From a virus, in the IMG/VR virus record IMGVR_UViG_3300042402_007915, positions 64,001-128,000 of that record: DNA of 64,000 nucleotides. One strand, given 5' to 3'. Both the position numbers and the translations under genes were made by a program. This document shows positions 28,079-46,306 of this stretch, piece after piece. Under the pieces are notes generated by a model. It ran no database searches and was not told the DNA's origin. It saw only the letters and a program-made list of their open reading frames with translations. Numbering within the stretch: position 1 is the first letter of the stretch; each line of letters opens with the position of its first letter.

Positions 28079-30048
28079 TGAAACCCAAGCTAGAAGAAGC
28101 CATCGCAACCTTTGTCCTTGAGAATAGAAGGGCTCCATCTGCGTACGAGCTTAGACTTCTTGAGGAAGGGGTAAATAAAAACCCCCTACCGGATTTTGAT
28201 CCGGAGGGGGTGGAGATTGCTTTCAGAGAACAGTCTGACGCATTTAAGTTCAGCAAGTTAATGAAGCAAAGATTTGTTCGTGGGTTGAAGGCTTACGAAG
28301 AGATGCTCATGCAGTCCGCCAAGCTTAGGGAAGAACTGATCTTCAAAAAGCACGCCGCTAGTAGAATGCTGGATCGTCTTGCTCGGGTAGAGCAAGGGCT
28401 CGACAACATCTTGCTGAAAAAAGAAAACAAGTTGTTCTTCGCTACGGCAGAAGAGACCTTTGATACTAGAGCCAAGGTGGTAAGACAGAGCACTACGGCG
28501 TCTATTAAAGATGGCAATGTCTTCCTTGGTAAAACAAATGAAAGCAGCATTGAACTGTCTTCGGGAATGATTTCGTATGCGATCTATGCGCCCAAAGGCA
28601 TCATCTCCAAAGCTGTAACCGAAAGCACAGAGGCCCTAAAAAACAACGACGGGGTTATGTGGAATGCTTTTGTTTACACCGACTACGAGGTGGGAGAGAT
28701 TGCATTAGAGCTAACCATCGAATTGCCAAAGCCAACCACTATCAAGAGGCTTGAACTGATAGGCCCTCCAGTGAACGGCAACTCAGATACAACAGTCGCT
28801 GTCTTCTCTAGGTCCCCTAATGGGAAGCTGCAATCCATTGCTCCAGGTGAAGAAGCCTTTAGGAGCCTAAACACTTTCTTGGTGAACAAAGACGAAGTCG
28901 CTTCAATCAGCATTGTGCTCAAGAAGTCTGCCTTCGACACAAAAACTGATTCGGGAAGACAGAACGTCTACGTGTTCAGTCTAGACCAGTTGGTGTTGTA
29001 TGGAAGGGGGACGGAAGAGAGTCTGGAGTCTGTGTTGGTTTGCGGCCCCTACTCCTTCCTCAAGGACAATACCGCAGTTAAGTTTCAAAAGGCTCAGCTC
29101 TTCCCTTGTGAGTTCAAACCTAAAGACACAAGCATTAGTTACTTCCTGTCTGATGACGGCACCAACTTCCTTCCTTGGACTTCTGAGCCTGTACACTTCC
29201 AAGAGGAGGCAGAAGGAACAAGCGCGGCCCTCATTGAAGAGCTAGAGAACGGACAGTCTTTGATTGCAGATCCTGAAGTAATTGAAGAAGCAGAACTTCA
29301 AGTTTCACTGTCATACGAAGACGAAGCCATCGTCAATAAATACATTGATCCGGATGAAGCTGCCAATGTTCCTCTAACAACCCTCTTGGTCAAGAGAGGA
29401 ATCCTAACTGCAAGTAACAGAGATGTTAAGTTCTTCAACGCTACCTCGGGATGGAGATACAAGCGCGGAATCTATTACACATGCGTAGTCGTTAAAGAAG
29501 GGGAGGGCAAGACCCTGGACTTTGGACCCAACTCAATCAGGGTCAACGGCGTAGAGAAGAGCGGCCTAGTTACTTTCCCTCAAGGTATCAACGAAGTAGG
29601 TGTGTACAGTGCTAACTGGAAAACAATTGAACCACAAGCCCTAACAGAAGTGGAGCTTGAACAAGAAGACTCTCTGTACCCCTATAACCATAAGTACCTA
29701 CTACAAGGCTATCAGTATGCAATAGGATACACCGGAGAGAAGATCTACAACGGCTTTGATGAAATGTTTGCCGTGAAAATGGACTTCGTGTACCCAGAAA
29801 TTTTTGCAGTAAAGGACCTGACAGAAGAAGATTTCTATTCGGTCTTTACGGTAGAAGAAGAAGAAACGGGCTCCTTCATTAAAGTCAAGATTGACAGAAG
29901 CAGCCAAGAGTGGGTTAACGAACTCATCTCTGTATCCTGGTCCAAGATCTCGGCAAGCAGAACTCAGCTATGGGTCAAGGCCATACTAAGAACAACAGTG
30001 CCGGGACTAAGCCCGAGACTCGAATCCTTTAAGCTTCAGGTGGGGTAA
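28078..30048 (+). CDS. Virion structural protein (paralogue trio, member 3)
   Basis: LTIEL...IKRLEL...ISIVLKK...YVFSL, C-terminal SPRLESF. Confidence 0.6.
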   Translation: MKPKLEEAIATFVLENRRAPSAYELRLLEEGVNKNPLPDFDPEGVEIAFREQSDAFKFSKLMKQRFVRGLKAYEEMLMQSAKLREELIFKKHAASRMLDRLARVEQGLDNILLKKENKLFFATAEETFDTRAKVVRQSTTASIKDGNVFLGKTNESSIELSSGMISYAIYAPKGIISKAVTESTEALKNNDGVMWNAFVYTDYEVGEIALELTIELPKPTTIKRLELIGPPVNGNSDTTVAVFSRSPNGKLQSIAPGEEAFRSLNTFLVNKDEVASISIVLKKSAFDTKTDSGRQNVYVFSLDQLVLYGRGTEESLESVLVCGPYSFLKDNTAVKFQKAQLFPCEFKPKDTSISYFLSDDGTNFLPWTSEPVHFQEEAEGTSAALIEELENGQSLIADPEVIEEAELQVSLSYEDEAIVNKYIDPDEAANVPLTTLLVKRGILTASNRDVKFFNATSGWRYKRGIYYTCVVVKEGEGKTLDFGPNSIRVNGVEKSGLVTFPQGINEVGVYSANWKTIEPQALTEVELEQEDSLYPYNHKYLLQGYQYAIGYTGEKIYNGFDEMFAVKMDFVYPEIFAVKDLTEEDFYSVFTVEEEETGSFIKVKIDRSSQEWVNELISVSWSKISASRTQLWVKAILRTTVPGLSPRLESFKLQVG

Positions 30049-30051
30049 CAA

Positions 30052-31341
30052 ATGGCTACGCTAACTAACAAACTACATACTGTCACTCAAGCGACAAGCA
30101 AGTTGGTCGCTGATAGGAGCGTAGTGAAGGACCTGGCAGGGATCGTTGAGCAACTTAACGAAGTCAACTACCCCCTGTTTGACGCACTACCGAGTACTGG
30201 TAAGGGTCATAACATTGATGCACTGGACTACGGTCTAAGTGGGAATGTCGTCTTTACTGACGTTGAAGCAAGTCTTGGTTCTGAACCTGTGTACTGGAAC
30301 ACTGCTCAGGGTAGACCTTGTACTGTTAAAGAGAGCCTTGAGGAAGTAAGTGCGCGGCTTGTTGGGCTGGACAATACAGTGGCGGCCCTTAATGACATTG
30401 CAGAGTACGATGACAGCGCTCTGTCTGACGGATTGGCAGAGCTTGAACTTAAAGTGGGGCAGGTTGCAGAGGATTCCTTTGGCGCTGGTTACACCTTGAA
30501 TTCAGATGGCGCCACCGTACTTCCCTACTCTGTGGCTGAGGTCCTAGACGCCCTGGGCGGGCTGTGTGAGGGCTATCTGGGGACAGGGCTAACCCACAGC
30601 GGTACTTTCCCAAGCATCTCCATCGCGAGAGGCTCAGTGTCGGAACTTGATGGAAACCTAGCTGAAATCTACGGAGCTATTGGCCTAGAAGAAGGTGACG
30701 AAACTATTGATTACTCCCTAGCTGGAGGTCCTTGGTCCTTTACCGATGGAATGTCTCTCGCACATGCAATGGTTAGTGTCGACGAGAACCTGTTCCGTCA
30801 ATGGGGAGAGCGTACCTTTGAAGCAGATCATCTTCACATCAATACTTCGGACACAGAAGTTAACGTAAGCTTTAACGCCTTGAGTTACCTCGGAGGAGAT
30901 GAAACGTACTTCCAAACCTTGGACATTACAGAGAACGTCGGCGCCCACTACTTTTCTCTCCAGGTAGTACCCCCAGTAGACGAAGACGGAAGAGCCCCTT
31001 CACAACTACAAGTAGAAGTATTCGCAACCTTCCTAAACCCACCCTCAGCAGGTACTGTAGCCAAGCTAGAAGTCTATGGACAAAACCAAGTCCCCTCAGG
31101 CCCACGGCTCCTAAGACACGGAGATGCACTAAACGTAGGCCACAAGCTTCTTGAAACCCTTACCTTCACCTACTCGGCTGTGAACACCCTTCATATTGCT
31201 ACCGGGAGTATGCACTCTATCGATAGCACCAACAAGGGTTTGATCACGCTGAAGTTCAAACGTCATTTTGGAACAATTGTCGGAGACGACTTCGATGGAA
31301 CACTCTCCGTACTGTTAGTAAAAGTTAAATGGTTCAAGTAA
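30052..31341 (+). CDS. Putative fibre-like virion protein
   Basis: Coiled-coil middle region and beta-rich C-terminal domain; near the end of the structural operon. Confidence 0.5.
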   Translation: MATLTNKLHTVTQATSKLVADRSVVKDLAGIVEQLNEVNYPLFDALPSTGKGHNIDALDYGLSGNVVFTDVEASLGSEPVYWNTAQGRPCTVKESLEEVSARLVGLDNTVAALNDIAEYDDSALSDGLAELELKVGQVAEDSFGAGYTLNSDGATVLPYSVAEVLDALGGLCEGYLGTGLTHSGTFPSISIARGSVSELDGNLAEIYGAIGLEEGDETIDYSLAGGPWSFTDGMSLAHAMVSVDENLFRQWGERTFEADHLHINTSDTEVNVSFNALSYLGGDETYFQTLDITENVGAHYFSLQVVPPVDEDGRAPSQLQVEVFATFLNPPSAGTVAKLEVYGQNQVPSGPRLLRHGDALNVGHKLLETLTFTYSAVNTLHIATGSMHSIDSTNKGLITLKFKRHFGTIVGDDFDGTLSVLLVKVKWFK

Positions 31342-31356
31342 CCGAGGAGGCGACCT

Positions 31357-31770
31357 ATGGCAGAAAAGAACGCTGAAGAGGTGCTTCAGAGCTTACAAGC
31401 AATGAGACAAGAAGACCTTCGCGCCCTTGCCGAAAAGGAACGCGACCTAGTTTCAATGATTAGGGTCATGGAAGGAAGGCAGAATGCTCGGCTTCAAAGA
31501 GTTGAAGACAACCTCGCAAGGATAACAACCGACAGAGATTCAGACGTGGCAGATGCAAAAGAGTCCTTGAAAGAGATCAACGAAAAGATTAGTGCTATCT
31601 CGACTAAGCTCGTACAGCACAATCTGGACTTTGCAACGTTTAGCGCCAAGTTCAGTACTAAGACTGAAGGGGCCGATAATCTACTATGGAGGATTGTAGT
31701 GCCACTAATCACTGGTGTAGGAGTAGGCGCGGCCCTATTACTCGCTAAAGTAGTACTGGGGGTTTCATGA
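31357..31770 (+). CDS. Coiled-coil protein with C-terminal TM helix (holin/XhlA-like candidate)
   Basis: GAGGAGG RBS; heptad pattern; LLWRIVVPLITGVGVGAALLLAKVVL. Confidence 0.5.
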   Translation: MAEKNAEEVLQSLQAMRQEDLRALAEKERDLVSMIRVMEGRQNARLQRVEDNLARITTDRDSDVADAKESLKEINEKISAISTKLVQHNLDFATFSAKFSTKTEGADNLLWRIVVPLITGVGVGAALLLAKVVLGVS

Positions 31771-31988
31771 CAGAACTGCAATACCAAAGAGTATTGGCTC
31801 GTCTAACTAAACTAGAAAACACAATGAATGACTTGATCACTGCACACCAACACTTCATCACTGCTCTCCAGGTAACAGAACTACTAACTATTACCCAAGC
31901 AAAGATTGAAGAGCTCAGGATCACTACCGAGTCTCTTGTGGATAGGGTAGAGGTCCTAGAGGAAGAGCCTTACGAAGACCGAACGTAA
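31767..31988 (+). CDS. Small coiled-coil protein
   Basis: ATGA overlap; last gene before the terminator. Confidence 0.55.
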   Translation: MTELQYQRVLARLTKLENTMNDLITAHQHFITALQVTELLTITQAKIEELRITTESLVDRVEVLEEEPYEDRT

Positions 31989-32004
31989 CCGCAGAAGAGA
32001 AAAT

Positions 32005-32034
32005 AAAAGGGGAGGCACTAAGCCTCCCCCTTTT
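32005..32034. terminator. Bidirectional intrinsic terminator at the convergent strand switch
   Basis: AAAA-GGGGAGGC-actaa-GCCTCCCC-c-TTTT between convergent stops at 31988 and 32033. Confidence 0.88.
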
Positions 32035-32455
32035 ACTGTATATTGTATCTTGCTGAGTAATTTTCGTCCCGCTTCTCAAAGAAGAGGACAAAAAGTTCTG
32101 AACCGTCCTCTCTGATGAAGTGATATGCATCGTGCAACAGGGCTTCGATATACTTTAAGGCCTCAATCGAACCACCAAATGCTTCCGTAACGAGGTTGGG
32201 GCCGAGAGTTAGATAAGTTCTCCACGATGTTAAATTCGAATCGGATGTTTTGGTAATGAATGACGTACAAGAGTATGTGGTAGCAATCTCCTTACCTATA
32301 CGAAAAGAGATGTCATCCAAAAAGTTGATAACAGGGTCTTTGCTTAGGGGCCAAGAGCTGGGCAGGCCTAATCGATGAGGACCTACCTGGGCAGGAGTAG
32401 TTTCAACTACGGTATCCCAAGCCGAAGATTTGGGAACCTCAAGGCTTAATCTCAC
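32033..32455 (-). CDS. KLNL-W leader family protein (array member 13)
   Basis: GTG start in GTGA overlap; leader VRLSLEVPKSSAW; core INFLDDIS. Confidence 0.75.
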   Translation of the reverse strand: MRLSLEVPKSSAWDTVVETTPAQVGPHRLGLPSSWPLSKDPVINFLDDISFRIGKEIATTYSCTSFITKTSDSNLTSWRTYLTLGPNLVTEAFGGSIEALKYIEALLHDAYHFIREDGSELFVLFFEKRDENYSARYNIQ

Positions 32456-32883
32456 GAGTTTCTTCCTCTGTATGCGAAGTACCACTTACCATCGGGAGGT
32501 CTCCGAGAGAAATCGTAAACGTAAATAGCGTCGCTATGTCTGCGTAGATTGCTGTATGCTCTTTCAAACCACTCAATAAGTTCCCTAAGGAAAGGGTCAT
32601 TTGCATTTGGTAACGACGCAAAAGCCGTCTCTACCTCCATAACGGAGAATGCATGTGCATAGTCAATTCTGTGCGATGGAAGACTATGACACAAGACAAC
32701 AGGAAGGTTTCGTTTAACGCCAGCCTCCAGTGCACAATGCAGAGATAAGGCATTTGCGAACTCTACACCATCAGAATATCGTTTCTGAAACACGTCAATT
32801 AAATCTGGAGAAGAAGCATCGCCTGCCTCTGAAGGAGGTACATCCCAAATTGAAGACCTAACTGAACCAAGGTTTAACTTCAC
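32452..32883 (-). CDS. KLNL-W leader family protein (member 12)
   Basis: Leader MKLNLGSVRSSIW; FANALS...HSDAIYVYDF...YRG. Confidence 0.8.
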   Translation of the reverse strand: MKLNLGSVRSSIWDVPPSEAGDASSPDLIDVFQKRYSDGVEFANALSLHCALEAGVKRNLPVVLCHSLPSHRIDYAHAFSVMEVETAFASLPNANDPFLRELIEWFERAYSNLRRHSDAIYVYDFSRRPPDGKWYFAYRGRNS

Positions 32884-33311
32884 AGACCTCCTCCTCTGTA
32901 TCCAAAGTAGGAATAAAAGCTAGAAGGGTAACGATTGAAGTCGTAAACGTAAATGGCGTCTTTGTGACACAATGAAGAACTATATGCTCTTTGAAGTGAC
33001 TCGACTAAACAGCCTAAGAGCACATGTTCTTTATCAGGCAACCTTGAGTAAGCCGTTTGAACGGTTTGTCGTTCCAATGTAATCCCTCGATAGTGGCTGT
33101 ATTCATTACAATCGCTAAGCAAAGAAATGGGAAGGCCTCGCTTGTAAGCGGCTTCGGTTGCAAGATGCATAGATAATGCGTTCAAGAAGTCTATGGGAGA
33201 ATCGTATTGTCTTTCAAATACGTCGGTCAAATCCAAAGGAGGGACAGCTTTACCTTCAGGTGGAACTGTATCCCAAATTGAAGATCTACTTAGCTCAAGG
33301 TTTAATATCAC
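32880..33311 (-). CDS. KLNL-W leader family protein (member 11)
   Basis: Leader MILNLELSRSSIW; FLNALS...HKDAIYVYDF...YRGG. Confidence 0.8.
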   Translation of the reverse strand: MILNLELSRSSIWDTVPPEGKAVPPLDLTDVFERQYDSPIDFLNALSMHLATEAAYKRGLPISLLSDCNEYSHYRGITLERQTVQTAYSRLPDKEHVLLGCLVESLQRAYSSSLCHKDAIYVYDFNRYPSSFYSYFGYRGGGL

Positions 33312-33733
33312 CTGCCACCTCGATACCCAACATAATGTCCACCCGGGCTGTGAAAACGAGCGAAATCGTAAGCGTAAATAGCCTGTCGATGTCTTGAGGA
33401 CTCATAAGCGAGCCTAAGCCTCTGAAGGATAAACTGAACTTCAGGGCTGTCCTTATCTGGTAATGACCTGAAAGCCTCATCAACTCTTTCTTTATTTAAC
33501 GTAAAGCCCCAAACAGTATCTCTAGTGGGAAAATAACAACATAAAAGACAAGGGATCTCCCGCTTAGAAGCGTATTCCTGTGCAAGTTCTAGAGACAATA
33601 TATTCAGGAACCCTAAGGGGGTAGGATAGTTTCTACCAAACAGATCGGTATGGTCCAAGGAAGGAGCGTCTATTGTTTCGGAAAGAAATCCTTCCCAAAC
33701 AGATGATCTGGTTCCCTCAAGGTTCAGCCTCAT
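33308..33733 (-). CDS. KLNL-W leader family protein (member 10)
   Basis: Leader MRLNLEGTRSSVW; FLNILS...HRQAIYAYDF...YRGG. Confidence 0.8.
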   Translation of the reverse strand: MRLNLEGTRSSVWEGFLSETIDAPSLDHTDLFGRNYPTPLGFLNILSLELAQEYASKREIPCLLCCYFPTRDTVWGFTLNKERVDEAFRSLPDKDSPEVQFILQRLRLAYESSRHRQAIYAYDFARFHSPGGHYVGYRGGR

Positions 33734-34155
33734 AAGTATCCACCTCTATACCCTGTATAGATAACAGGGCACGATGGACGGAGAGAAAATTCAACAACAT
33801 TAATCGAACGGCAAAGCGGAGGTGTGACAGACAAAGGCACGTTACAAGTATGCCTAAAAGAGGAAATCAAACGCTCAATTTGAAGATCGTTTTTGTTTGG
33901 TAAGGACGAAAATACACTGTTTACGTAATCTTCCAGAAACGCGTAGGCCAAAATAGTTTTCTCCCCGAAGTCAGAAAGAAAAGCAAGCGGAAGGTTTTGT
34001 TCAGTTGCAATCTCTTGTGCAACAGACAAGGACAATGCATTCAGAAACTCTAAAGCAGAAGTGTATTCCCTTTCAAAGATATCGGTGCAGTTCTTCTCTC
34101 TAGGTGAGATTGCATCCCAGAGAGAATGTTTGGGAACGTTCACGTCAAGACGCAA
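33730..34155 (-). CDS. KLNL-W leader family protein (member 9)
   Basis: TTG start after AGGAGG; leader MRLDVNVPKHSLW; FLNALS...YRGG. Confidence 0.78.
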   Translation of the reverse strand: MRLDVNVPKHSLWDAISPREKNCTDIFEREYTSALEFLNALSLSVAQEIATEQNLPLAFLSDFGEKTILAYAFLEDYVNSVFSSLPNKNDLQIERLISSFRHTCNVPLSVTPPLCRSINVVEFSLRPSCPVIYTGYRGGYL

Positions 34156-34933
34156 AGGAAGACCTCCTGAGTTCAGCAGCTAGGGTTTTATTGGCAAGCT
34201 CTTGCTCTTGTGAAATAGATATCACTTCAGCAAGGTACTTAAGCTCTGCAGCTTTAGCGTCCTCAAAAGCATCATGGTCGGGTTGTATTTGATCCATGAA
34301 ATCCATAAGCCAATGATAGTTGACTAACTGATCAGAACAGTATTGAACAAAGTTCGTCTCATCACAGTTGCGAGCCACCATACTTTTGTCCAGGAAAGGA
34401 AACTCTCGCCGAGAAAAGTCTTCCCAGTAGTGATTGAAGTGAGCAGCATCAGCGAGTGCTGAAAATAGAACTCCAATTTTGTCCGGAGAAGGTCTTGGCA
34501 TGTGGTAGTATTTGTCTTTGTAAACAAAAGTGTACGTCGGAAAAGCTAATCTAACGCCATTGTTGGGAAGCATCTTTTTGATCGTAGAGACGAAAGGTAA
34601 ATTCAAAAAGAAAATCGGTGACAGGAAGACAATCCCACAAAGAGTCAAAACGAATGCATTCTGGAGCAATACGCTTACGAGAAAAAGAAAGAGCAGACTT
34701 GCTAGCCACAAGTCCAGACTTACGTAGAAGTAAAAAGCAAGCTGCTGAGAGCTAACGGGCAAATTGTTAGTTTTAGCGAAAGTATTGCTCCGAACCAAAA
34801 CGCGCACTTCTTTCTCAAAATGTGCCTTGGCTGGATGATTGTGGAGATTCTCATAAAGGGAGACAAGGTCTGCCTTAATCTTTAATTTCTGCTCAGTGGC
34901 CGATGAAGAGGTATTACCCTGGACGGTAGGCAT
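34145..34933 (-). CDS. Two-TM membrane protein interrupting the array
   Basis: Hydrophobic LWLASLLFLFLVSVLL and AFVLTLCGIVFLSPIFFL; start ATG 34933 after GGGGAG. Confidence 0.7.
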   Translation of the reverse strand: MPTVQGNTSSSATEQKLKIKADLVSLYENLHNHPAKAHFEKEVRVLVRSNTFAKTNNLPVSSQQLAFYFYVSLDLWLASLLFLFLVSVLLQNAFVLTLCGIVFLSPIFFLNLPFVSTIKKMLPNNGVRLAFPTYTFVYKDKYYHMPRPSPDKIGVLFSALADAAHFNHYWEDFSRREFPFLDKSMVARNCDETNFVQYCSDQLVNYHWLMDFMDQIQPDHDAFEDAKAAELKYLAEVISISQEQELANKTLAAELRRSSFAS

Positions 34934-35369
34934 TACTGAACAGTCTCCCCTGAATTTTAGAATCTCTGATATCTTTAGAATCAAAAGTAATTATGGGGCA
35001 ATCACTCACAGCCACCCAATCCGCTACAAAGAAGAAGTTATCTTCGTAGAGTCGAAAGATCCGACTAACAAAACGAGAGTGTGAAGTATGGTCTCCAAGG
35101 TAAGCTGCAATGATTTCGGGCATCCAAAAGTCATAGTCCAAACACTCAGGTACAGCAGGAGCTAAGTCCCATCTACGGGAATAATTGTTCCAGCCCTTAC
35201 GGCGCAAGCCCTCTAGCTGCTGGCAACTTGAAATTCCATTAGCCCAAACAAGAGCACTCTCAATCCGAAGAGAAATTTCTTTCTGCTTATCCTGCGGAAC
35301 ATTAGGGACAGCGTAAATCGGGCCCCAAATATTCTCTCTCAAGGTCTCCAAATTAAGTTTCAGGGACAT
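34914..35369 (-). CDS. KLNL-W leader family protein (member 8)
   Basis: Leader MSLKLNLETLRENIW; WANGIS...EIIAAY. Confidence 0.75.
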   Translation of the reverse strand: MSLKLNLETLRENIWGPIYAVPNVPQDKQKEISLRIESALVWANGISSCQQLEGLRRKGWNNYSRRWDLAPAVPECLDYDFWMPEIIAAYLGDHTSHSRFVSRIFRLYEDNFFFVADWVAVSDCPIITFDSKDIRDSKIQGRLFSNAYRPG

Positions 35370-35794
35370 TACTGTAAGTCATCAAGAGTGTGACGTAGGA
35401 CGAATACAAGATTCTCATCTTCGTTGTAGATAAAGGTATAAAGTCTGACCTTGTTGGCATGGAGGAGAAGGTTGTAATTTCTCCGTAAGAATTCGGTAAA
35501 CCGCATCCTTTCTTCAAGGATCTTGCCGTCTTCGGTCTCTTGAAGAACTGCTTCTAAAATTTCCGACTCTTGAAAGGTATACACCTCTTGTACGGGAGAA
35601 GGTCTATCGTCAAGTAAAACAGATCGGCCCGCTTTGGTTAGTTTTTCTTGCTTTTCCAAAGCTAACTGTAAAGAAAGTTTGTTAAGTAAGACAATCGCTC
35701 TATCAATGGCAGATGCGTAGGTAACCTCTCCAGTCAAAGACGTCTCGGTCAGCTCCCAGATAGAGCTTCTTGGGGCTTCAAAACTTAACTTCAA
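35369..35794 (-). CDS. KLNL-W leader family protein (member 7)
   Basis: Leader MKLSFEAPRSSIW; LLNKLS...EILEAV...HANKVRLYTF. Confidence 0.78.
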   Translation of the reverse strand: MKLSFEAPRSSIWELTETSLTGEVTYASAIDRAIVLLNKLSLQLALEKQEKLTKAGRSVLLDDRPSPVQEVYTFQESEILEAVLQETEDGKILEERMRFTEFLRRNYNLLLHANKVRLYTFIYNEDENLVFVLRHTLDDLQ

Positions 35795-36194
35795 AGTCGG
35801 CGCGCCTCCTCAAAAACAGAAAGAACTTATCGTACCTAATTACTTTGAAACAATAGACCTTGTAACTATGTATTGAGCTTAGATAGTACTCTCGGATTCT
35901 TTCAGGAACCCAAGAGTTAGCAAAGTTGTCCGAAGCAAGATTTGCGTCAAACACATCTTCTACGTTATCTGCTAGAAGGAAAGCGGTAACTATTGTATCT
36001 GCGTTCTTGTCATCTTCAGGGGGAGACCCAATGTCTGGATTCATTATTTGTCTGCCTCTAGCTTCGGCTTCGTAAACGCAGATTTTGTTTAGCTCTTCAA
36101 GAACAGGGTCTGCAAACTCAGGGGGCAAACGCTGCTGAGACATTTCCAACGCGTCCCAAACCCCTCCCTTTGCTGACTCAAGATTAAGTTTCAC
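35778..36194 (-). CDS. KLNL-W leader family protein (member 6)
   Basis: Leader MKLNLESAKGGVW; ELNKIC...YLSSIHSYKVYCF. Confidence 0.78.
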   Translation of the reverse strand: MKLNLESAKGGVWDALEMSQQRLPPEFADPVLEELNKICVYEAEARGRQIMNPDIGSPPEDDKNADTIVTAFLLADNVEDVFDANLASDNFANSWVPERIREYYLSSIHSYKVYCFKVIRYDKFFLFLRRRADFEVKF

Positions 36195-36559
36195 TAGCGA
36201 GGCTTACCGAGTGAGTAATAGATCTTGCCGTCTCGCTCAAAGAAGTGCCAACGGGTAGAATAAGTGTAGAGGTTGGATATTCTATCTCTAATCTGAGCAT
36301 CCTTCTCTTTCGAGTCCTTGCCTCCAAAAAAAGCATCCCAAGCAAACTCCAAATCACAAAAGGCAGCTCCTAAAAGCTCGGGATCTCTGACCGAAGGCGA
36401 AGTCTTTGTTGTCCTATGTAGGAAATAGAACTCTGAGAGATTGTTAAACCAAGTAAGAAGACGCGACAAGTTTTCAGGGCTTTTTTCATATTTGGAATCA
36501 AAAGCTTCAGGAGCAGTACCCCAAACACTACTTCTCTCAAGGTCAAGATTGAGTTTCAT
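36194..36559 (-). CDS. KLNL-W leader family protein (member 5)
   Basis: Leader MKLNLDLERSSVW; WFNNLS. Confidence 0.78.
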   Translation of the reverse strand: MKLNLDLERSSVWGTAPEAFDSKYEKSPENLSRLLTWFNNLSEFYFLHRTTKTSPSVRDPELLGAAFCDLEFAWDAFFGGKDSKEKDAQIRDRISNLYTYSTRWHFFERDGKIYYSLGKPR

Positions 36560-36921
36560 CGATCATGCCTGTAGGCAGTAAATCCTGAACTCGTCCGCCT
36601 TGCCGTATAAAGTTTGACTTGATGTCTATGCACAGAATGGCAATAAAGCTCTTGAATCTTATGAAATAGGCGTAAATCATCTTTCCCGTCAAAGGCGGCA
36701 AGAACCTCTGCTGTGGTAAAGCTGTCTCTCATCAAACTAGGATAGGGCCGCGCATCAATTGCGACGTTCAACTCGGCGGCTCTTTTTTGAGCAAGCGTAT
36801 AAAGTAGGCCGTTAAGATAGACAAGGAGTTCAACACTCTTTTGTTGTTCTTGCTCTTGTGGAGTGAGCTCAGGCAAAGTATGCCAAATAGAAGATGGTTC
36901 CCCAGTCAAATTAAGTTTCAA
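36556..36921 (-). CDS. KLNL-W leader family protein (member 4)
   Basis: Start re-called to TTG 36921: LKLNLTGEPSSIW; YLNGL...EVLAAF...YCHSVHRHQVKLY. Confidence 0.75.
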   Translation of the reverse strand: MKLNLTGEPSSIWHTLPELTPQEQEQQKSVELLVYLNGLLYTLAQKRAAELNVAIDARPYPSLMRDSFTTAEVLAAFDGKDDLRLFHKIQELYCHSVHRHQVKLYTARRTSSGFTAYRHDR

Positions 36922-37324
36922 AACTACAAGCCCACTGCCTAAAGATACGGAATTCATTCTCAGCTTCTTCAAAGACGTAAAGGTATACCTTTTCTCTGTG
37001 AACACTCGAAAGATACAAGTTCCGAATCGAAAGGATAAAACCATCCAAGGCTTCAAGGCGAAGATCTGCATCCGGAGAGGTTGATAAGTTGGCTTGTAAA
37101 GTTTCAAAAATAGATAGAATTGTATCCTTATCCCAACTGTCGATTTGGATACGAGGCTCTGTTTCATAATTGATAGAAATCTGCAACTCATCCGATCTGC
37201 GAGCAGCTTCCCCTAAGGAGAGATTATTCAAAAACTCAAGAATACTAGGAAACTCAGAGTTGGTAGAATGTGTCCTTGAAACATCCCACATAGTGGTAGG
37301 CTCTCCTTCTAGATTGAGCTTCAT
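36911..37324 (-). CDS. KLNL-W leader family protein (member 3)
   Basis: Leader MKLNLEGEPTTMW; FLNNLS...YLSSVHREKVYLY. Confidence 0.8.
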   Translation of the reverse strand: MKLNLEGEPTTMWDVSRTHSTNSEFPSILEFLNNLSLGEAARRSDELQISINYETEPRIQIDSWDKDTILSIFETLQANLSTSPDADLRLEALDGFILSIRNLYLSSVHREKVYLYVFEEAENEFRIFRQWACSFET

Positions 37325-37725
37325 TTCTCTTGTCTCCCCATGTCTAAAGATGTTTGTGTTTTCTCTCGAAAAGTATAGAGCTGTACCTCGTGGAAATGGT
37401 TTGCAGATCCATATCTTAGCCTAATCATTTCACGGAGCTGTTGATAGTGATTCCAATCTGCCAAAGTAACATCACCGACTTCAGTGGAGCCATAGGTATA
37501 AGCGCCTAAGGCCTGTGAAAGGGGCAGCTCCCTAACTGAAACAAAAGGCTCTGTCTGAAAATTGATATTCACTCCTAAACGGTTAGCTCTAAGATGGGCT
37601 TCGTCTAGAGACAATTGGTTCAAGAAAGTAATAAGCCTAGAGTGAGGAGTTTCCGGAGTCTGTGTAGTTGGTACATTCCAAAAAGAGGAGAGCTTCCCTT
37701 CAGCGGGAATAATAATGTGTACCAC
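37321..37725 (-). CDS. KLNL-W leader family protein (member 2, degenerate leader)
   Basis: Probable GTG 37725; AEGKLSSFW; FLNQLS...YGSANHFHEVQLYTF; close to member 3 (INFQTEP/INYETEP). Confidence 0.72.
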   Translation of the reverse strand: MVHIIIPAEGKLSSFWNVPTTQTPETPHSRLITFLNQLSLDEAHLRANRLGVNINFQTEPFVSVRELPLSQALGAYTYGSTEVGDVTLADWNHYQQLREMIRLRYGSANHFHEVQLYTFREKTQTSLDMGRQEK

Positions 37726-38089
37726 GCCTTCCTGCCTCGATATAATTACCGGAGACCCTAAAGACATAAGGCTTCACTCCATTGTCATGAATCGAATTGA
37801 GATACCAACTTCTTATCCTAGCGACAATATTTGTATAGGATCGAGAAGTCTGACTTTCATCCTCATAGGCTAAAAGAACGTCGCTGCGTAAAATCCCTGC
37901 AACCCAAAATGGATCAGAAGGCAGACACTCTAGTCCGCTACCTAACTGTGCAGCTCTTTCGGCTGCTAACCTGTAAGAAAGAAGACAAAGAAATTTCAGA
38001 AGCTGGTCTTCTTCATCTGATTCAGCAACGACCTGAGGTGAGGGTGCATCCCAAATGGTAGAACGTGGGGATTCAAGATTCAGTTTCAC
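37700..38089 (-). CDS. KLNL-W leader family protein (member 1)
   Basis: GTG start in GTGA overlap; leader VKLNLESPRSTIW; FLCLLS...YLNSIHDNGVKPY. Confidence 0.78.
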   Translation of the reverse strand: MKLNLESPRSTIWDAPSPQVVAESDEEDQLLKFLCLLSYRLAAERAAQLGSGLECLPSDPFWVAGILRSDVLLAYEDESQTSRSYTNIVARIRSWYLNSIHDNGVKPYVFRVSGNYIEAGRRGTHYYSR

Positions 38090-38364
38090 TTCGGTCCTCG
38101 AGTGATGTAAATTGGTGGCCTGCCCGGGCCTCCTGGCCACCAGCTTCCAGGATAGCTTGTTTCAGGCTTAAGCTTACTTGCGGCGACGCAAACGTAAACA
38201 AGAGCTGACAATAAGAACAGGCCTAAGCCCACTTCAGCCCACGTATTATCTTTGGGCTGTATCGGTTCGTGATACAGATTGCACACATGCGCATGATAAT
38301 TGTGCCCGTGAGATTGGGTTGAAATACGACTAGTAGTGTAGTGCAAATGATTAGGAGAGCTCAT
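38086..38364 (-). CDS. Small single-TM membrane protein
   Basis: ATG 38364 after AGAGGAAG; VGLGLFLLSALVYVCVAA. Confidence 0.6.
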   Translation of the reverse strand: MSSPNHLHYTTSRISTQSHGHNYHAHVCNLYHEPIQPKDNTWAEVGLGLFLLSALVYVCVAASKLKPETSYPGSWWPGGPGRPPIYITRGPK

Positions 38365-38572
38365 TTGACTTCCTCTTCTTTCTACGCGCTTTGCGGTTGA
38401 AAATAGGAGGAGGCTTGCGAACCGAGTAGCTACACAGATCTTCAAATAGTTCTGGATGGATCAGCACTGTATCAATGAAGAATGGTGTCGCAAGGGTCTC
38501 ACGGCACCACTCTCCAAATTCGGCCCTACTCTTCGGAATCGATATCGTCAAGGAAGATTGTTTCTTCTCCAT
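38351..38572 (-). CDS. Small hypothetical protein with basic C-terminus
   Basis: Fills the gap between neighbours; NRKARRKKRK tail; start uncertain. Confidence 0.4.
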   Translation of the reverse strand: MEKKQSSLTISIPKSRAEFGEWCRETLATPFFIDTVLIHPELFEDLCSYSVRKPPPIFNRKARRKKRKSNELS

Positions 38573-38825
38573 TCCAGATCCAGCTTCCAGAAACGGTGAG
38601 GCCATCATACTCCCCAATAGGCTCGCAGTACTCCTGCTCTTCAGGGTCCTCGGGCATAACGCCTTGATATACAAACGCTACCGGAAACTGACCTTCAATA
38701 CAGACGAACGAAACCCAGAAGGGCTCATCACCAGATACCGTAAAACTATGGGGAGTCATATGGAGAGGTTTGGTAGTTCCATCTTCATCGTCTCCAAACT
38801 CAGTAAACACTTCGCACTTGATCAT
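38526..38825 (-). CDS. Small highly acidic protein
   Basis: ATG 38825 after AAGGAG; 99 aa, D/E-rich. Confidence 0.65.
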   Translation of the reverse strand: MIKCEVFTEFGDDEDGTTKPLHMTPHSFTVSGDEPFWVSFVCIEGQFPVAFVYQGVMPEDPEEQEYCEPIGEYDGLTVSGSWIWNGEETIFLDDIDSEE

Positions 38826-38848
38826 GTTAGCTCCTTCTCTTGGTCCTC

Positions 38849-39511
38849 TTAGGATCCGGCAAGACGTCCAGGGAAATAGATACGAATAGAGGCTTCGTCG
38901 AACCAATCGCCAAAGCTAGTAAAGAAATCATCGCTTTCTATTTTGGCAATTATTGGTACGAATAGTTTAACGGGAGTAGGTCCGTTAGATAGGCCGCCAA
39001 GACTAGGAGGAGGGGGAGACGAATAAATTGTCTTGATCTTTCGAGGATTACTCTTAGCGGAAGTAGTCTCTCGCTCTACAGTAAACAATGCAGAAGCAGA
39101 AAGAAAAACGCCTTCATTCTTCTGTACGATTTCTACGTTTGTAATCTGTGATAAATCATTTAAGGACGAAATGCGTCTCTCATCGGTTGGGATTTCAACA
39201 TAGGGATTGATAAACGGTTCTATATCTAACCCCCAAGAAGCCACATTGCGTTCTGCATCGTAGGCTAGGTAAGGGAAATCATTGAGACAAGTTTCGGAGA
39301 AGCACTCAAAGTTGCTGACATCTTTGAGTACGTCTGCTTCAACAACCTCTAAAGCCTCGTTTAGAAACCGCGTCAAATATTCTTCGTCAACAAGCCAAAA
39401 GATATAACCTTCGTACGTCATGGTATTTGTTTCCGGACCATCTTCCAACGGAGAGTAATAACGCTTATCACAGTAAATCTGGAAGTTAGGGGCAGAACTT
39501 CTCTTTCCCAT
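38849..39511 (-). CDS. Hypothetical protein (possible second paralogue family)
   Basis: 220 aa, TAATG-coupled. Confidence 0.65.
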   Translation of the reverse strand: MGKRSSAPNFQIYCDKRYYSPLEDGPETNTMTYEGYIFWLVDEEYLTRFLNEALEVVEADVLKDVSNFECFSETCLNDFPYLAYDAERNVASWGLDIEPFINPYVEIPTDERRISSLNDLSQITNVEIVQKNEGVFLSASALFTVERETTSAKSNPRKIKTIYSSPPPPSLGGLSNGPTPVKLFVPIIAKIESDDFFTSFGDWFDEASIRIYFPGRLAGS

Positions 39512-40158
39512 TAGCCTCTTCTCTTGGGGAAGTTCGATTCCAATTGACCTGGAACATATAAATAGGCGTCACTCAGTCTATTACACATGCTATGGCGGTA
39601 AAGCAGGGCTCGCCTAATGGTGATAGAAACAGGATCTGGTAGGTGCACCTTCTGCTCGCCATGATAAACCAAATTGTCAACAGTAACTGTTGTCTTCTCG
39701 ATCCGATATCCGGGACAAGTAGTCTTAGCAACAAGACTCAACACCAAATTACCAGCAGAGCTGTATTGGTCTTCTAGGTCAATCTCGATACTTTTGAAAT
39801 CTCTAGAAAGCTCTTTGAAAGGAAGAAAGTCGCAGGCTTGACTTACCATGACTTTAAGATCTTTTTGACAGAATTTATCGACTAGATGAGCAGACATATA
39901 GAAAGAATCTTTGGCATCCGAGTGACCTCTGTAAACGAAAGAACCCAATTCCTTTTCCTCAGCTTCAGAGACTGGAAGCAGATTTGGGTATCGAGATTCA
40001 ATAAGGCTCTTCAATTCTTGGAGGAATTCTTTCTCACGACTCATCTCCAGGATGAAAAGCCTGTAATCAGAAATGCGTTTTGAACTACCTAAATCCCTAG
40101 ACAGAAACAAACTCATATCAAGGTTAAGGGCGCAAAGGCCTCTACTCGAAACACCCAT
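39511..40158 (-). CDS. Hypothetical protein (possible second paralogue family)
   Basis: 215 aa; TVTVDNLVY. Confidence 0.65.
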   Translation of the reverse strand: MGVSSRGLCALNLDMSLFLSRDLGSSKRISDYRLFILEMSREKEFLQELKSLIESRYPNLLPVSEAEEKELGSFVYRGHSDAKDSFYMSAHLVDKFCQKDLKVMVSQACDFLPFKELSRDFKSIEIDLEDQYSSAGNLVLSLVAKTTCPGYRIEKTTVTVDNLVYHGEQKVHLPDPVSITIRRALLYRHSMCNRLSDAYLYVPGQLESNFPKRRG

Positions 40159-40163
40159 GTAAG

Positions 40164-40691
40164 TCAGAACCTTCCATGCATCATATCGACGCTGTTAGCA
40201 CGAGAAAGAGTGGGAGCGTCTTGTACACGGTACATCCAATATGTGAACTTAAGTGTGGCTTGGTACCTAGTTCTAACGGCATCTTCTGCCGAGTATACAA
40301 TTCCGTCAATTGTCTTCTTGGGGCGAGAAGAGTGTTCGATTTCTGTATCCAAGTAGCCTTGAAGGAAGTAAGAAAACTGGTTTGGAGGGCATAGTGTAAT
40401 AGAAAAATCCCTAACCATGTCGTTATGTTTTAGTACAAATATAAATCTTTTTTCATCGCTAGAAAGAGCTTCAGAGCTTAAGCTACTAGGCGAATCTATT
40501 TGCCAAGTTTTATTTGGCAAAGAGATTGTTCTGTTCGTAAAGAGAGGGAAGGCTCCCTTTTCTGTTCTTTCCTTAACTTCCGTAATAAGGTCTGCGTTGA
40601 ATTGCTCAAGGTTATATTTTTCAGGATCAAATAGAAGTGGAGTTGGTGCTCTAAAGACTTCTGGGTTTAAGGTTACGCTAAGGACGCCCAT
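40164..40691 (-). CDS. Hypothetical protein (possible second paralogue family)
   Basis: 175 aa; KTIDGIVY. Confidence 0.65.
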   Translation of the reverse strand: MGVLSVTLNPEVFRAPTPLLFDPEKYNLEQFNADLITEVKERTEKGAFPLFTNRTISLPNKTWQIDSPSSLSSEALSSDEKRFIFVLKHNDMVRDFSITLCPPNQFSYFLQGYLDTEIEHSSRPKKTIDGIVYSAEDAVRTRYQATLKFTYWMYRVQDAPTLSRANSVDMMHGRF

Positions 40692-40701
40692 TCTTTACTG
40701 C

Positions 40702-41553
40702 CTAAAAGATGTATCGTATTGTCTTCGGGTCGAAGAACTCTGAATAGACTTTGGTGAAGTCAGCAATGTACTGACGCTTCAAAGACCACTTATACCTGAT
40801 GTTGTCTGGGGCGTACTCCGAATCCTTTTCCTCCTGGATGTCTGGTTTCCACAGCAAAGCACGAACGTCTTCAGAGTTCCGTTCGTGTTGGTGTTTGTTG
40901 TGCGTGAGGAAGATACATTCACATTGGGTTTTGATTCCGGCCACAGAGACTTGCCTGAACAAGTCTCTGTAGTGGTCAAGCCAGCCTGGTTCAACAATGA
41001 TCGGGCTGTAGTTAATGTGGACTTCCATGTGTTGGCTTAAGGGAAGGATAGTCTGAATACGTTTGGCAATAGGGTCTGTGCCTAGCTCCAGTACGTCAGA
41101 ATAGGCCTGAGGCATTAGGCTTACCCTGAGTCGATGCCTTTCTGGGGCGAGCTCATAAGCTTCAGGATTGAACCTGGAGGGATACTTAGTAGCGAAGGTG
41201 CTCTTGAGGTCTGCACTGGCATTGAAGAACTGAAATACTGGACGCCAATCATACAACCGAGACATGAGAGGAACGTCCGTACTGCAGCCAATATCAATAG
41301 TGTAATACTTTGGATCTACTTGATTAGGTATCTTGGCTAGAGGCTGTGTATCGCGCCACCTCTTTATGCTCTCAAGGATCTGTTCTACATTCTCATTGAA
41401 ATAAACCTTATCAAAGTTATACCGACCAACATAGCAATAAGACCGCATGCAGCCGCCAAGACACCCATAAATGAAGTTGGGTGAGATGGCGTCTGAGCTG
41501 CGGCCGTTATCCCTAGTAGTTAGAGTCTTTGTCTTTTGATGGATTAATTTCAT
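40702..41553 (-). CDS. splB: Spore photoproduct lyase (SplB)-like radical SAM protein
   Basis: SSDAISP...GCLGGCMRSYCY, PNQVDPKYYTIDIGCSTD, FATKY, RLRVSLMPQ, VHINYSPII. Confidence 0.8.
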   Translation of the reverse strand: MKLIHQKTKTLTTRDNGRSSDAISPNFIYGCLGGCMRSYCYVGRYNFDKVYFNENVEQILESIKRWRDTQPLAKIPNQVDPKYYTIDIGCSTDVPLMSRLYDWRPVFQFFNASADLKSTFATKYPSRFNPEAYELAPERHRLRVSLMPQAYSDVLELGTDPIAKRIQTILPLSQHMEVHINYSPIIVEPGWLDHYRDLFRQVSVAGIKTQCECIFLTHNKHQHERNSEDVRALLWKPDIQEEKDSEYAPDNIRYKWSLKRQYIADFTKVYSEFFDPKTIRYIF

Positions 41554-41869
41554 AAGAATGCATCTTCACCCTAACGTTAAGAATTGCATTGACAGCCAAG
41601 AAAGCAGCAAGCAGAAAGTACAACAAGAAAGTCCAGAGATTCAAAGCAAAAACACTAAGTGCGAAAATAGCAACTGCTTGAATCGGTCCCAAGATCAAGA
41701 AGAGCATGAAGAGCAAACTACCTTCGTAGTGCAATTTCATATTTTCAGCCCTATCGCTATAAGAGTACAGAAGGAATCCTAATCCAAAATGGATGTTTAG
41801 AATAAGGTTGGAGATCGTATTGAAGACTCTGCTGACTTTCGTAAGTAGGTTGAAGTGCTCAGTTTTCAA
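41513..41869 (-). CDS. Small multi-TM membrane protein
   Basis: Three hydrophobic stretches. Confidence 0.55.
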   Translation of the reverse strand: MKTEHFNLLTKVSRVFNTISNLILNIHFGLGFLLYSYSDRAENMKLHYEGSLLFMLFLILGPIQAVAIFALSVFALNLWTFLLYFLLAAFLAVNAILNVRVKMHSYEINPSKDKDSNY

Positions 41870-42119
41870 AGTTGTTTAGCTCCTCCTGTAGTGGCATTGG
41901 GAACACGCGGTAATACAAAGAACGAGCCAAGACGTAAGGCACCCAGATCGGAGAGGCGAGGATAATCAGGAACCAGAACAGAACGATCGAGAAAGGATTC
42001 TCGTCTCGCTTGGCAGACTCAACAAGCCAACTCCAAAAGGAGAGGCACCCCCCAAGGAGGACGGACACGAACTTCTTCTGCACGAAAGAACTCCTATGGT
42101 TTGTTTGGAGACCAGACAT
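41859..42119 (-). CDS. Small membrane protein
   Basis: SIVLFWFLIILASPIWVPYVLA. Confidence 0.55.
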   Translation of the reverse strand: MSGLQTNHRSSFVQKKFVSVLLGGCLSFWSWLVESAKRDENPFSIVLFWFLIILASPIWVPYVLARSLYYRVFPMPLQEELNNFEN

Positions 42120-42576
42120 TCAGAGTCAGAGGCGACTCTAGTCTAGCCAAAGTTGAAAACCGAAGAATCTTCCCAGGAATAAGAGAACCATGAGAAGCTT
42201 GACTGATGAAATTAGTACTAAATTCTTCTCGGCAATAAATCTCTGCCGGTGTGATGCCGTCGACAAAGTCTCTGTGAATCAAAACCTTACGAGAATCACA
42301 AGTATAACTTTGTGCTACAGACCAGTAAGCAATAGGCTTGTCGTAAAAAACAAGTGAAGTATCGTGATAACCTGCACCATTAGTCGGATAGTAATTCTCT
42401 TCGGAAACAAGAAATAGACATGAACTTTGGGGTCCAGAACATCCAGAATATAAAGGCGGAACAGCGTTCGAAGAAAGGTGCTTCTCAATCCGCTCTGTAA
42501 CTTCTTGCAGAGCTTCCTCTTGGTGTTCCTGGAGGAAGAGAAGATCACGGAAACCCCACCTAGGATGGGGTTCCAT
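42094..42576 (-). CDS. Hypothetical protein
   Basis: 160-aa ORF in the co-oriented block. Confidence 0.6.
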   Translation of the reverse strand: MEPHPRWGFRDLLFLQEHQEEALQEVTERIEKHLSSNAVPPLYSGCSGPQSSCLFLVSEENYYPTNGAGYHDTSLVFYDKPIAYWSVAQSYTCDSRKVLIHRDFVDGITPAEIYCREEFSTNFISQASHGSLIPGKILRFSTLARLESPLTLNVWSPNKP

Positions 42577-42638
42577 TAAGTTACAAGGGAAGATAAAATG
42601 GAGCCTTCTATAAGTTGTCTTAACTCCGAGATCCAGGC

Positions 42639-43331
42639 TCAGGGGAGTGTCTGCGAATTACAAATTAAATGAATAGTATTTTTTGAATCAGGTTCCACTT
42701 CACAGAAACAAGAATCTAGTCTTACATATCCTTTTACATATGCGACCGTTGAGGGGGAATAAAATACCTTACCATTGAGTGTTATTGTCTCTTGCTCCCC
42801 CCTCGCTCGCAAGGTAGCGGGGCAGATAGCAGTAAAATAGATTGAGTGATTCTTGACGTTACATACGAGATGAATTGGATCTTCAATCTTTTCAACCCAC
42901 GCTTCCGGACGCGAAACATACCAATAATTATGCTCAGTGCCGTATCCTGGATAACCCGCAAACCCATACCACTTTGAAATACCAAGCTTTGATAAATCAG
43001 CTACAGAGTTTCTGCACTCATAAACTGAATTGGAGCTACTTACAACGGTAGGGGTTACCGTTCTTGCAAGTAAGTCGAAAAGAGTACTATGTGCGCTTGA
43101 AGCATTATCATTTATCTTTGCTCTGCAAACCTCCAAGAGAGATTCAAGAAGCTTTGACTGCGCGTCCTTGCGGACACTAAGGTAGGTTTTTGAATCCCTA
43201 ATCAAATCTGGAGAAAGAATCCTTGGCACATTAACCTTAAAAGTAACCTGAGATTGATTGGCGAGTTCCTGCTTTGTCCTTGGAAAATCAAAGCAAGAAA
43301 GCAAAGAGGCACCAATAGGGGTCCTTTCCAT
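42639..43331 (-). CDS. Hypothetical protein (possible second paralogue family)
   Basis: ATG 43331 after AAGGAG; TITLNGKVFY. Confidence 0.65.
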   Translation of the reverse strand: MERTPIGASLLSCFDFPRTKQELANQSQVTFKVNVPRILSPDLIRDSKTYLSVRKDAQSKLLESLLEVCRAKINDNASSAHSTLFDLLARTVTPTVVSSSNSVYECRNSVADLSKLGISKWYGFAGYPGYGTEHNYWYVSRPEAWVEKIEDPIHLVCNVKNHSIYFTAICPATLRARGEQETITLNGKVFYSPSTVAYVKGYVRLDSCFCEVEPDSKNTIHLICNSQTLP

Positions 43332-43342
43332 GACTGGCTCCT

Positions 43343-43618: not shown

Positions 43619-43621
43619 TGG

Positions 43622-45585: not shown

Positions 45586-45616
45586 AGAGACTCCAAGTGA
45601 GAAAGAATACTGTTTC

Positions 45617-46240: not shown

Positions 46241-46251
46241 TGTCCCTCCAT

Positions 46252-46288
46252 CAAAAGAACAGGGGAGAGGGTTACCCCTCTCCCCTGT
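46252..46288 (-). terminator. Intrinsic terminator, 13-bp stem with GUAA (GNRA) loop
   Basis: Minus strand ACAGGGGAGAGGG-GTAA-CCCTCTCCCCTGT-TCTTTT, 18 nt after the stop at 46307. Confidence 0.85.
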
Positions 46289-46306
46289 CATGATCCAACT
46301 TTTAGA

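Follow-up and report, generated by a model that had tools for sequence, protein, structure and literature searches.

Why should a phage keep the first few residues of a set of small proteins more alike than the folded domains that follow them? The question is raised by a 64,000-nucleotide stretch of viral DNA (hereafter the window), bases 64,001–128,000 of the 147,225-bp IMG/VR provirus record IMGVR_UViG_3300042402_007915, which derives from an uncultured phage and has a CheckV completeness of 99%. It encodes a tandem array of paralogous proteins, m01 to m13, which begin with a common leader of 13 residues, here called the tag. A sequence-only reading of the window had interpreted these proteins as an address tag joined to a variable payload. 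Having followed this up computationally, we consider it fairly probable that the tag works as a short linear motif, for docking or as an address, which one shared partner recognises in trans.

Both the open reading frames and a genome-wide profile search bore out the array of 13 members that had been claimed at window positions 32033–38089. The genes are intact, 121–151 codons long and arranged head to tail on the minus strand, and a profile built from the 13 products matched exactly these 13 proteins in the whole 147,225 bp, with E-values from 1e-46 to 1e-21. The run is not unbroken, since a two-pass membrane protein that is not a member (TM262, 34145–34933) interrupts it, and two small conserved genes overlooked by gene callers precede m01. 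The proposed division into two subfamilies also held: m09–m12 match one another with E-values of 1e-14 to 1e-29, and m01–m07 are weakly alike. Neighbouring genes are chained by overlaps of 1–11 nt of the ATGA or GTGA type, and the Shine–Dalgarno sequence of the next gene is often encoded by the C-terminal YRGG-type codons of the preceding one; the array genes are thus predicted to be translationally coupled. Their start codons are mostly not ATG (GTG in five, TTG in three, ATG in four and probably ATT in one).

The tag was compared in 28 distinct leaders from this phage and related phages. Trp13 was invariant (28/28), Leu3 was present in 27 of the 28, Leu5 in 23, Ser11 in 21 and Ser10 in 17; Lys or Arg occupied position 2 in 23 leaders, and Asn4 and Glu6 were found in 19 and 17, respectively. 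The peptide consists of an amphipathic K-L-N-L-E stretch, a turn with R/K-S-S, a hydrophobic residue and the invariant Trp, and it is 15 residues long in two bona fide family members (P0023 and P0024). When ordinary start codons are used, Trp falls at residue 13 in 11 of the 13 array members, the same figure as had been counted before; the exceptions are m02, which requires an ATT start to be in register, and m08, which carries a 2-residue extension from its ATG. Such a fixed position fits a reader that also senses the free N-terminus. Secretion signals (Sec, Tat, lipobox) were considered by eye and rejected, the tag being polar and short and the members having no hydrophobic segment.

As had been noticed, the leader is better conserved than the core: the mean pairwise identity among the 13 members is 46% over residues 2–13 and 22% in the core. 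Between the tag and the head lies a poorly conserved Pro/Ser/Thr/Glu linker of 10–25 residues, whose identity of 12% is about fourfold below that of the tag, the core being about twofold below it. At the conserved positions the codons vary, with CTG, CTC, CTT and TTA used for Leu3 and both TCN and AGY codons used for Ser10 and Ser11, and it is this synonymous variation that shows selection to act on the peptide and not on the DNA. Compared with a 98%-identical strain, the leader residues differ at only 1 of 143 positions.

Models of m03 (subfamily 1) and m11 (subfamily 2) were made with AlphaFold2, using the 26–27 available sequences as input. Each model had a mean predicted local distance difference test (pLDDT) score of 86.7 and showed the same alpha/beta core of about 105 residues, with a core pLDDT above 90 and the topology helix, strands, two helices, two strands. 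Residues 1–20 of m03 and 1–30 of m11 had pLDDT values of 53–64 and no secondary structure, so that in the monomer models of both subfamilies the leader is predicted to form no strand of its own core. One way of dismissing an address tag would be to find the leader as an integral strand of the core everywhere and never on unrelated proteins; we found neither, as the monomer models place it off the core and a similar peptide begins the unrelated protein g207, described below. In chaperone–usher pilins a missing strand is supplied by donor-strand exchange from the N-terminal extension of the neighbouring subunit, whereas the m03 and m11 cores are modelled as complete alpha/beta domains, which argues against such a defect here. 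An array of precursors of ribosomally synthesised and post-translationally modified peptides (RiPPs) was rejected, the "core" being a confidently folded domain of about 105 residues.

Among the polar columns of the core none is invariant; the highest frequencies are those of Tyr (89%), Ser (85%), Arg (85%), Asn (81%) and His (74%). Since the head lacks both an invariant set of residues that would suggest catalysis and a recognisable relative, it may best be regarded as a diversified binding module, and its sequence fits a binding scaffold better than an enzyme. The members have isoelectric points of 4.5–7.9, i.e., they are acidic to neutral. When nine of them were compared with Pfam and PHROG at E-values up to 1, only chance-level rows were returned, in agreement with the earlier statement that no named family could be recognised. 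Foldseek searches of PDB and BFVD with both models gave nothing at E ≤0.001, and in the ESM Atlas the scores, up to 0.84 for m03 (DUF1877 being a weak lead) and up to 0.79 for g207, were all within the chance range. With VIA-align (48,161 chains) the top match of both models was the archease fold (PDB 1j5u, 1jw3), with a Z-score of 4.2 for m03 (root-mean-square deviation 3.0 over 75 residues) and of 5.3 and 4.1 for m11, and 1jw3 also ranked first for m03 in Foldseek, at E 0.27. According to the tool, a Z-score below 8 denotes a possible common arrangement, and the likeness to archease is accompanied by no sequence similarity, Pfam match or functional link. On the strength of the models, the heads appear to make up a new domain family, one that folds with confidence and has no counterpart in Pfam or PHROG.

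A second protein body with such an N-terminus is encoded in the same window. A six-frame scan found the leader-like MNLNLNFTLPMSTAW at position 46240, which turned out to be the start of g207, a protein of 207 residues. The open reading frame had been called with 224 codons, wrongly: its first 17 codons are a terminator with a 14-bp stem (46289–46258), and the internal ATG is preceded by the ribosome-binding site GGAGGG. When g207 was aligned to the family profile with hhalign, the tag alone aligned (25 columns, E 2.6e-4) and the body did not align at all. Between this phage and its sister lineage, 15 of the first 16 residues of g207 are identical, with 8 synonymous differences and 1 non-synonymous difference, as against 3 of the following 16 residues and 41% of the full protein. 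This is the same pattern of tag and variable linker as in the array, and the g207 tag is under strong purifying selection at the peptide level. Since g207 is the first gene after the terminator at 46258 and the array is the last before the next strong terminator, both belong to the same unit of about 14 kb. No relatives of g207 were found outside this phage clade.

We also searched this genome and two related contigs (L018 and L019) with a hidden Markov model (HMM) of the leader only. All family members in the three sequences scored at least 9.6 bits, except for one 15-residue variant (L018:11199) at 2.7 bits, and every non-member scored 7.5 bits or less, none being above noise outside the array. 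The N-terminus of a virion protein of 1365 residues (MAFESFRGPDIW), whose resemblance to the leader is weak, fell below noise by this measure and was discarded.

A HMMER search of 1.84 billion representative proteins gave 26 family matches, about half of which were the window's own proteins; all were 118–156 residues long, i.e., no fused forms exist among them. The remaining matches came from the 98%-identical strain (L016, L017), from a sister lineage (L018 and L028, from one run, and L019) and from ENA fragments of low coverage belonging to a single assembly. The leader is present on all matched relatives, and the family seems to be restricted to one phage clade represented by a few related contigs. 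Other searches for relatives were negative: a metagenome scan with the membrane protein TM92 as bait returned the known contig only and a viral scan with it nothing, megablast of window 28000–40000 against the phage collection gave no match, and the phage capsid protein had no relative in GTDB genomes.

In the sister lineage the gene order is acid99, basic73, TM92, ten members, a membrane protein, three members and then the converging virion genes. The best matches of the cores are colinear between the two lineages, m01, m02, m04–m08 and m13 each pairing with the gene at the matching position, which indicates that the arrangement is old. Duplications are lineage-specific, with m03-like and m05-like genes multiplied in the sister lineage and m09–m12 here. 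Between orthologues the bodies are 33–40% identical and the tags 55%; the neighbouring genes are 40–91% identical. The array also evolves fast over a short distance. In the six members that could be compared with the 98%-identical strain (m08–m13) we counted 61 non-synonymous and 43 synonymous differences, a ratio of non-synonymous to synonymous change (pN/pS) of 0.42, whereas the adjacent virion genes differed from the same strain by 3 non-synonymous and 25 synonymous changes (pN/pS 0.04).

Whole cassettes are lost as well. L016 is without m06 and m07, and the junction lies in TGAAACTTAAT, 11 nt of leader codons that m06 and m08 share without a difference; the product is an intact chimeric gene with the start of m06 and the body of m08. 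As orthologues of m06 and m07 are present in the sister lineage, the state of L016 is a deletion. It is clear that the tag-coding repeat served as the crossover site for this loss, from tag to tag, and presumably it can serve for the gain of cassettes too. In T4-type phages, conserved cassettes at gene boundaries, the PeSL elements, shuffle accessory genes (PMC2839356, PMC4122927). The likeness lies in the use of a short conserved boundary sequence as a crossover point, here 11 nt of leader codons and a deletion of two genes; the T4 repeat, in contrast, consists of a promoter and a stem-loop, whereas the repeat of the array is coding and is kept alike by selection on the peptide. From the elevated pN/pS and the cassette turnover, the cores could be a diversified anti-defence repertoire, as the sequence-only reading had suggested.

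The unstructured N-terminal peptide, the variable linker, the diversified head and the similar tag on g207 together fit a motif that is read in trans, and we infer that the tag binds a partner. The idea of an address tag with a variable payload is upheld in so far as the tag stands off the core in both models and recurs on the unrelated body of g207. The family is built from a tag (the first 13 residues), a flexible linker and an alpha/beta head of about 105 residues; according to the mechanism we propose, one shared partner would read the tag, so that the 13 heads and g207 would be brought to the same place.

Comparable arrangements are known. The T4 internal proteins IPI, IPII and IPIII share a capsid targeting sequence at their extreme N-terminus, which works on unrelated bodies, and the set of such proteins varies between phages (PMC3012670, PMC9026906). 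The array resembles them in that a short N-terminal peptide is common to dissimilar small phage proteins, the 13 paralogues with their 22% core identity and g207. It differs in that a long flexible linker comes after the tag, which is not known to be cleaved, in that the proteins have no sequence similarity to IPI, IPII or IPIII, and also in that the bodies are paralogous, mostly acidic to neutral, conserved in order and encoded in a non-structural operon together with membrane proteins. The internal proteins of T4 are basic. If Glu6, present in 17 of the 28 leaders, is taken as the P1 residue of a T4-type cleavage site, P3 is Asn and not Leu or Ile. The analogy with T4 that had been drawn from the sequence thus stands for the architecture and fails for an L/I-x-E site in register; a gp21-type protease was not found in the genome. 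Cargo proteins of encapsulins are similar in that a flexible linker joins the cargo domain to a terminal peptide whose hydrophobic residues alternate, and an HK97-fold shell would be the destination. Encapsulin peptides are usually C-terminal and their motif is another one, and their cargo is encoded next to the shell gene; here, by contrast, the HK97-type capsid gene is about 48 kb from the array and not adjacent to it. The N-motif degrons of ClpX and the XB motif of SspB are a further parallel, each being a free, unstructured terminal peptide with a shared reader, and this phage has both a ClpP homologue and a Lon-type AAA+ protein. N-motif-2 is said to consist of Met, a basic residue, three hydrophobic residues, any five residues and one hydrophobic residue at a free N-terminus (reportedly Flynn et al. 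2003), and the tag, which begins with Met, basic, Leu, x, Leu, presumably resembles it. Met1, Lys/Arg2 (23/28), Leu3 and Leu5 agree with that pattern, whereas Asn4 and Ser11 disagree. The conservation of the array tag, with its invariant Trp, far exceeds that of typical degrons.

Several points weigh against a motif read in trans. Judged by the sequences searched, the tag seems to occur only on this family apart from g207; the match between g207 and the array needs a 2-residue insertion and was found by scanning about 150 genes, and is best called suggestive; and the monomer models would be compatible with a tag that docks on the core of another copy. In an ordinary paralogue expansion the N-terminal peptide would be intrinsic to the family, exchanged as a strand in oligomers or acting as a lid in cis, and not portable, and we regard this as a real, though clearly minority, possibility. 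The leader HMM, which found nothing above noise outside the array, is in its favour, as are the long-conserved gene order and the translational coupling, which would be expected of subunits of one assembly, and the best-conserved positions of the core (the LNxLS helix and the Y...H...V..Y.F strand) could receive the tag of a neighbour. It is harder to reconcile with a tag that is unstructured and detached in the models of both subfamilies, with a variable, low-complexity linker (12% identity) between tag and core, and with the tag-like, strongly selected N-terminus on the unrelated body of g207. An explanation at the level of nucleic acid, in which the leader codons serve, for example, re-initiation, RNA structure or recombination and the peptides are alike as a by-product, seems very improbable to us. 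The overlaps of 1–11 nt with Shine–Dalgarno sequences inside YRGG-type codons would suit it, and so would the 11 nt of identical leader codons at which the m06–m07 deletion crossed over; the extensive synonymous variation at conserved residues (TCN and AGY for Ser, four codons for Leu) and the 8 synonymous differences against 1 non-synonymous difference in the g207 tag speak against it, no Rfam family was found within window 31000–46000, and we take it to be largely refuted by the codon data.

Granting that the tag is read in trans, its partner, which we also infer, may be sought in three places above all. The assembling procapsid is a possible but doubtful one: the tag would bind the scaffold or the inner capsid during assembly, and the 13 heads and g207 would be packaged and injected with the DNA for takeover or counter-defence, by analogy with the capsid targeting sequence of T4. 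The architecture and the evolutionary pattern match the T4 case, including cassette turnover and elevated pN/pS in the array; the tag is at the extreme N-terminus and on two unrelated bodies; the operon runs towards the virion module, converging with it, and a strong terminator parts it from the replication genes; and the ClpP homologue encoded one unit upstream has its best PHROG matches among head-maturation proteases, its best PDB matches being true ClpP. This form of the docking reading is weakened by the array genes being on the strand opposite the virion module, by the next unit upstream, past the terminator, carrying replication genes and ClpP, by the two membrane proteins coupled into the array, by the mostly acidic to neutral members, by the missing T4-type cleavage site, by the search for a gp21-type protease, which found none, and by the leader HMM, which found no structural-module protein with the tag. 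An AAA+ unfoldase that reads the free N-terminal peptide as a shared degron or as an adaptor tether, either host ClpX or ClpA with the phage ClpP or the phage Lon-type AAA+ protein, is in our estimate rather unlikely. ClpX recognises classes of N-terminal degrons (PMC12723719), and an unstructured N-terminus with a flexible segment of 20–30 residues is what AAA+ pores engage; both a ClpP and a 626-residue Lon-type AAA+ protein are encoded by the phage. Degrons, however, are usually loosely conserved, so that an invariant Trp and a fixed Ser-Ser would be unusual, and neither the ClpP gene nor the AAA+ gene shares the transcription unit of the array, the AAA+ gene being about 40 kb distant. Improbable is a special case of this, in which the tag would tether the heads and g207 to an AAA+ protease under phage control (the phage ClpP, paired either with host ClpX or with the protease-less Lon-type AAA+ protein of the phage) as a viral library of substrate adaptors for degrading host proteins such as those of defence; it would parallel the ankyrin/F-box and BTB arrays with which poxviruses hijack ubiquitin ligases. 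Less likely than the general protease tag is a membrane hub, in which the tag would dock the soluble members on cytoplasmic parts of TM92 and TM262 and the assembly would act on the envelope or on incoming phages. The stop codon of TM92 overlaps the start of m01, TM262 lies between m08 and m09 in both lineages, TM92 (73%) and TM262 (55%) are better conserved than the members (33–40%), and two predicted lipoproteins are in the same operon; but in so compact a phage operon the proximity of genes is weak evidence of interaction, and g207 is encoded 8 kb upstream. Some other partner we would place between the protease and the membrane hub in likelihood.

The features of the operon and its borders are collected in Table 1.

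Table 1. Genes and terminators of the array operon, in window coordinates
Feature	Position	Strand	Description
Bidirectional intrinsic terminator	32005–32033	both	12-bp stem (minus strand) with 7 G-C pairs; separates the array from the converging virion and tail operon
m13	32033–32455	−	140 aa (amino acids), GTG start; final gene of the operon
m12	32452–32883	−	143 aa, GTG start; subfamily 2
m11	32880–33311	−	143 aa, GTG start; subfamily 2; second modelled member
m10	33308–33733	−	141 aa, ATG start; subfamily 2
m09	33730–34155	−	141 aa, TTG start; subfamily 2
TM262	34145–34933	−	262 aa, non-member; 55-residue hydrophobic block, two predicted transmembrane helices; between m08 and m09
m08	34914–35369	−	151 aa from ATG, leader from residue 3; divergent, with an insertion
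m07	35369–35794	−	141 aa, TTG start; missing in L016
m06	35778–36194	−	138 aa, GTG start; missing in the 98%-identical strain L016
m05	36194–36559	−	121 aa, ATG start; ATGA overlap with m04
m04	36556–36921	−	121 aa, TTG start
m03	36911–37324	−	137 aa, ATG start; modelled member (subfamily 1)
m02	37321–37716	−	131 aa if ATT is the start; degenerate leader IIIPAEGKLSSFW
m01	37700–38089	−	129 aa, GTG start overlapping the stop of upstream TM92 (GTGA); leader VKLNLESPRSTIW
TM92	38086–38364	−	92 aa, unannotated; single-pass membrane protein with a His-rich N-terminus
basic73	38351–38572	−	73 aa, unannotated; basic tail; ATGA overlap with TM92; conserved in L018 and L019
acid99	38526–38825	−	99-aa acidic protein, 82% identical in L018
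g207	45617–46240	−	207 aa, N-terminus MNLNLNFTLPMSTAWG, unrelated body; first gene past the terminator
Terminator with 14-bp stem	46258–46289	−	Abuts the ribosome-binding site of g207; upstream edge of the unit of about 14 kb

Genes basic73 and TM92 fill an apparent gap of 430 bp upstream of m01 and were overlooked by gene callers on the related contigs too. TM92, whose TGA stop overlaps the GTG of m01, is 73–75% identical in L018 and L019, and the orthologue of TM262 in the sister lineage is 55% identical and has the same position. The two predicted lipoproteins follow g207 (window 44576–45720, minus strand), with lipoboxes judged by eye; one has a long Ser/Arg-rich C-terminal tail with SSRSSGYRSSGS-type repeats, and the other is 109 residues long with the lipobox LVAGC. 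ATT start codons are likely in two family members (window 37716 and L028:1939), in which ATT is exactly where the paralogues have ATG, GTG or TTG and the Shine–Dalgarno spacing is normal. For m02 the alternative starts are a GTG at 37725 and an ATG at 37767; in its L018 orthologue the first half of the leader is likewise degenerate.

Upstream of the terminator at 46258, the next unit encodes DnaE, an Mre11-like phosphoesterase, a PD-(D/E)XK nuclease, a primase-helicase, ThyX and the ClpP homologue (window 47924–48673, minus strand; Pfam 117 bits, PDB ClpP at E 1e-22). The latter has an N-terminal extension of 55 residues and is encoded among replication genes, not in the head module. A protein of 211 residues (window 46896–47531, minus strand) had no Pfam match at E ≤0.01. 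The head module, about 48 kb away, is encoded on the opposite strand and comprises a terminase, a portal, a 493-residue protein and the HK97-type capsid protein (G000 46166–47449); Pfam detected no protease in this module, and the 493-residue protein after the portal has a weak PHROG protease match (E 1.3e-4). Upstream of the terminase, a protein of 1046 residues (L020:602–3742, G000 30602–33742) has a staphylococcal-nuclease domain (Pfam SNase, E 1e-13). The 626-residue protein is encoded outside the window (L023:13488–15368, G000 141488–143368, minus strand) and has a Lon-type AAA+ module at residues of about 295–623 (E 8e-67 against that of Lon), after which it ends without an S16 protease domain; its N-terminal region of 290 residues matched no family. 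A Lon-type AAA+ protein together with a separate ClpP homologue suggests an unusual proteolysis toolkit for a phage.

Strong hairpin terminators that are flush with the ribosome-binding site of the next gene (in the order hairpin, TCTTTTG, GGAG, ATG) occur at window 46258–46289 and at G000 54303–54330, 47475–47498 and 132982–133014; they are found within the virion module, downstream of the capsid gene and ahead of g207, an arrangement that suggests attenuated read-through units rather than separate promoters. An SPL-like radical-SAM gene at window 40702–41553 (minus strand) has an identity of 91% in the sister lineage, and three unrelated, AT-rich IMG/VR phages without the array (L024–L026) carry it at 68% identity. 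Because it is present in phages without the array, it was rejected as a part or marker of the system, and a RiPP-style modification of the tag Trp by this neighbour was rejected likewise; the gene appears to move between phages singly.

If the tag is a true address peptide, a handle of 13 residues would send many phage proteins to one place, and the identity of its receptor would reveal a pathway of delivery or turnover in a phage lineage that is almost wholly uncharacterised. It would then be a second, independent case of the logic of "one tag, many payloads" seen in T4, here with payloads that are paralogous and ordered, and the tag could become a practical tool for loading or targeting proteins. 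The heads are candidate binders of host proteins. A repeat that codes for a peptide and is kept for the function of that peptide doubles in this phage as a crossover site at which cassettes are removed and presumably added.

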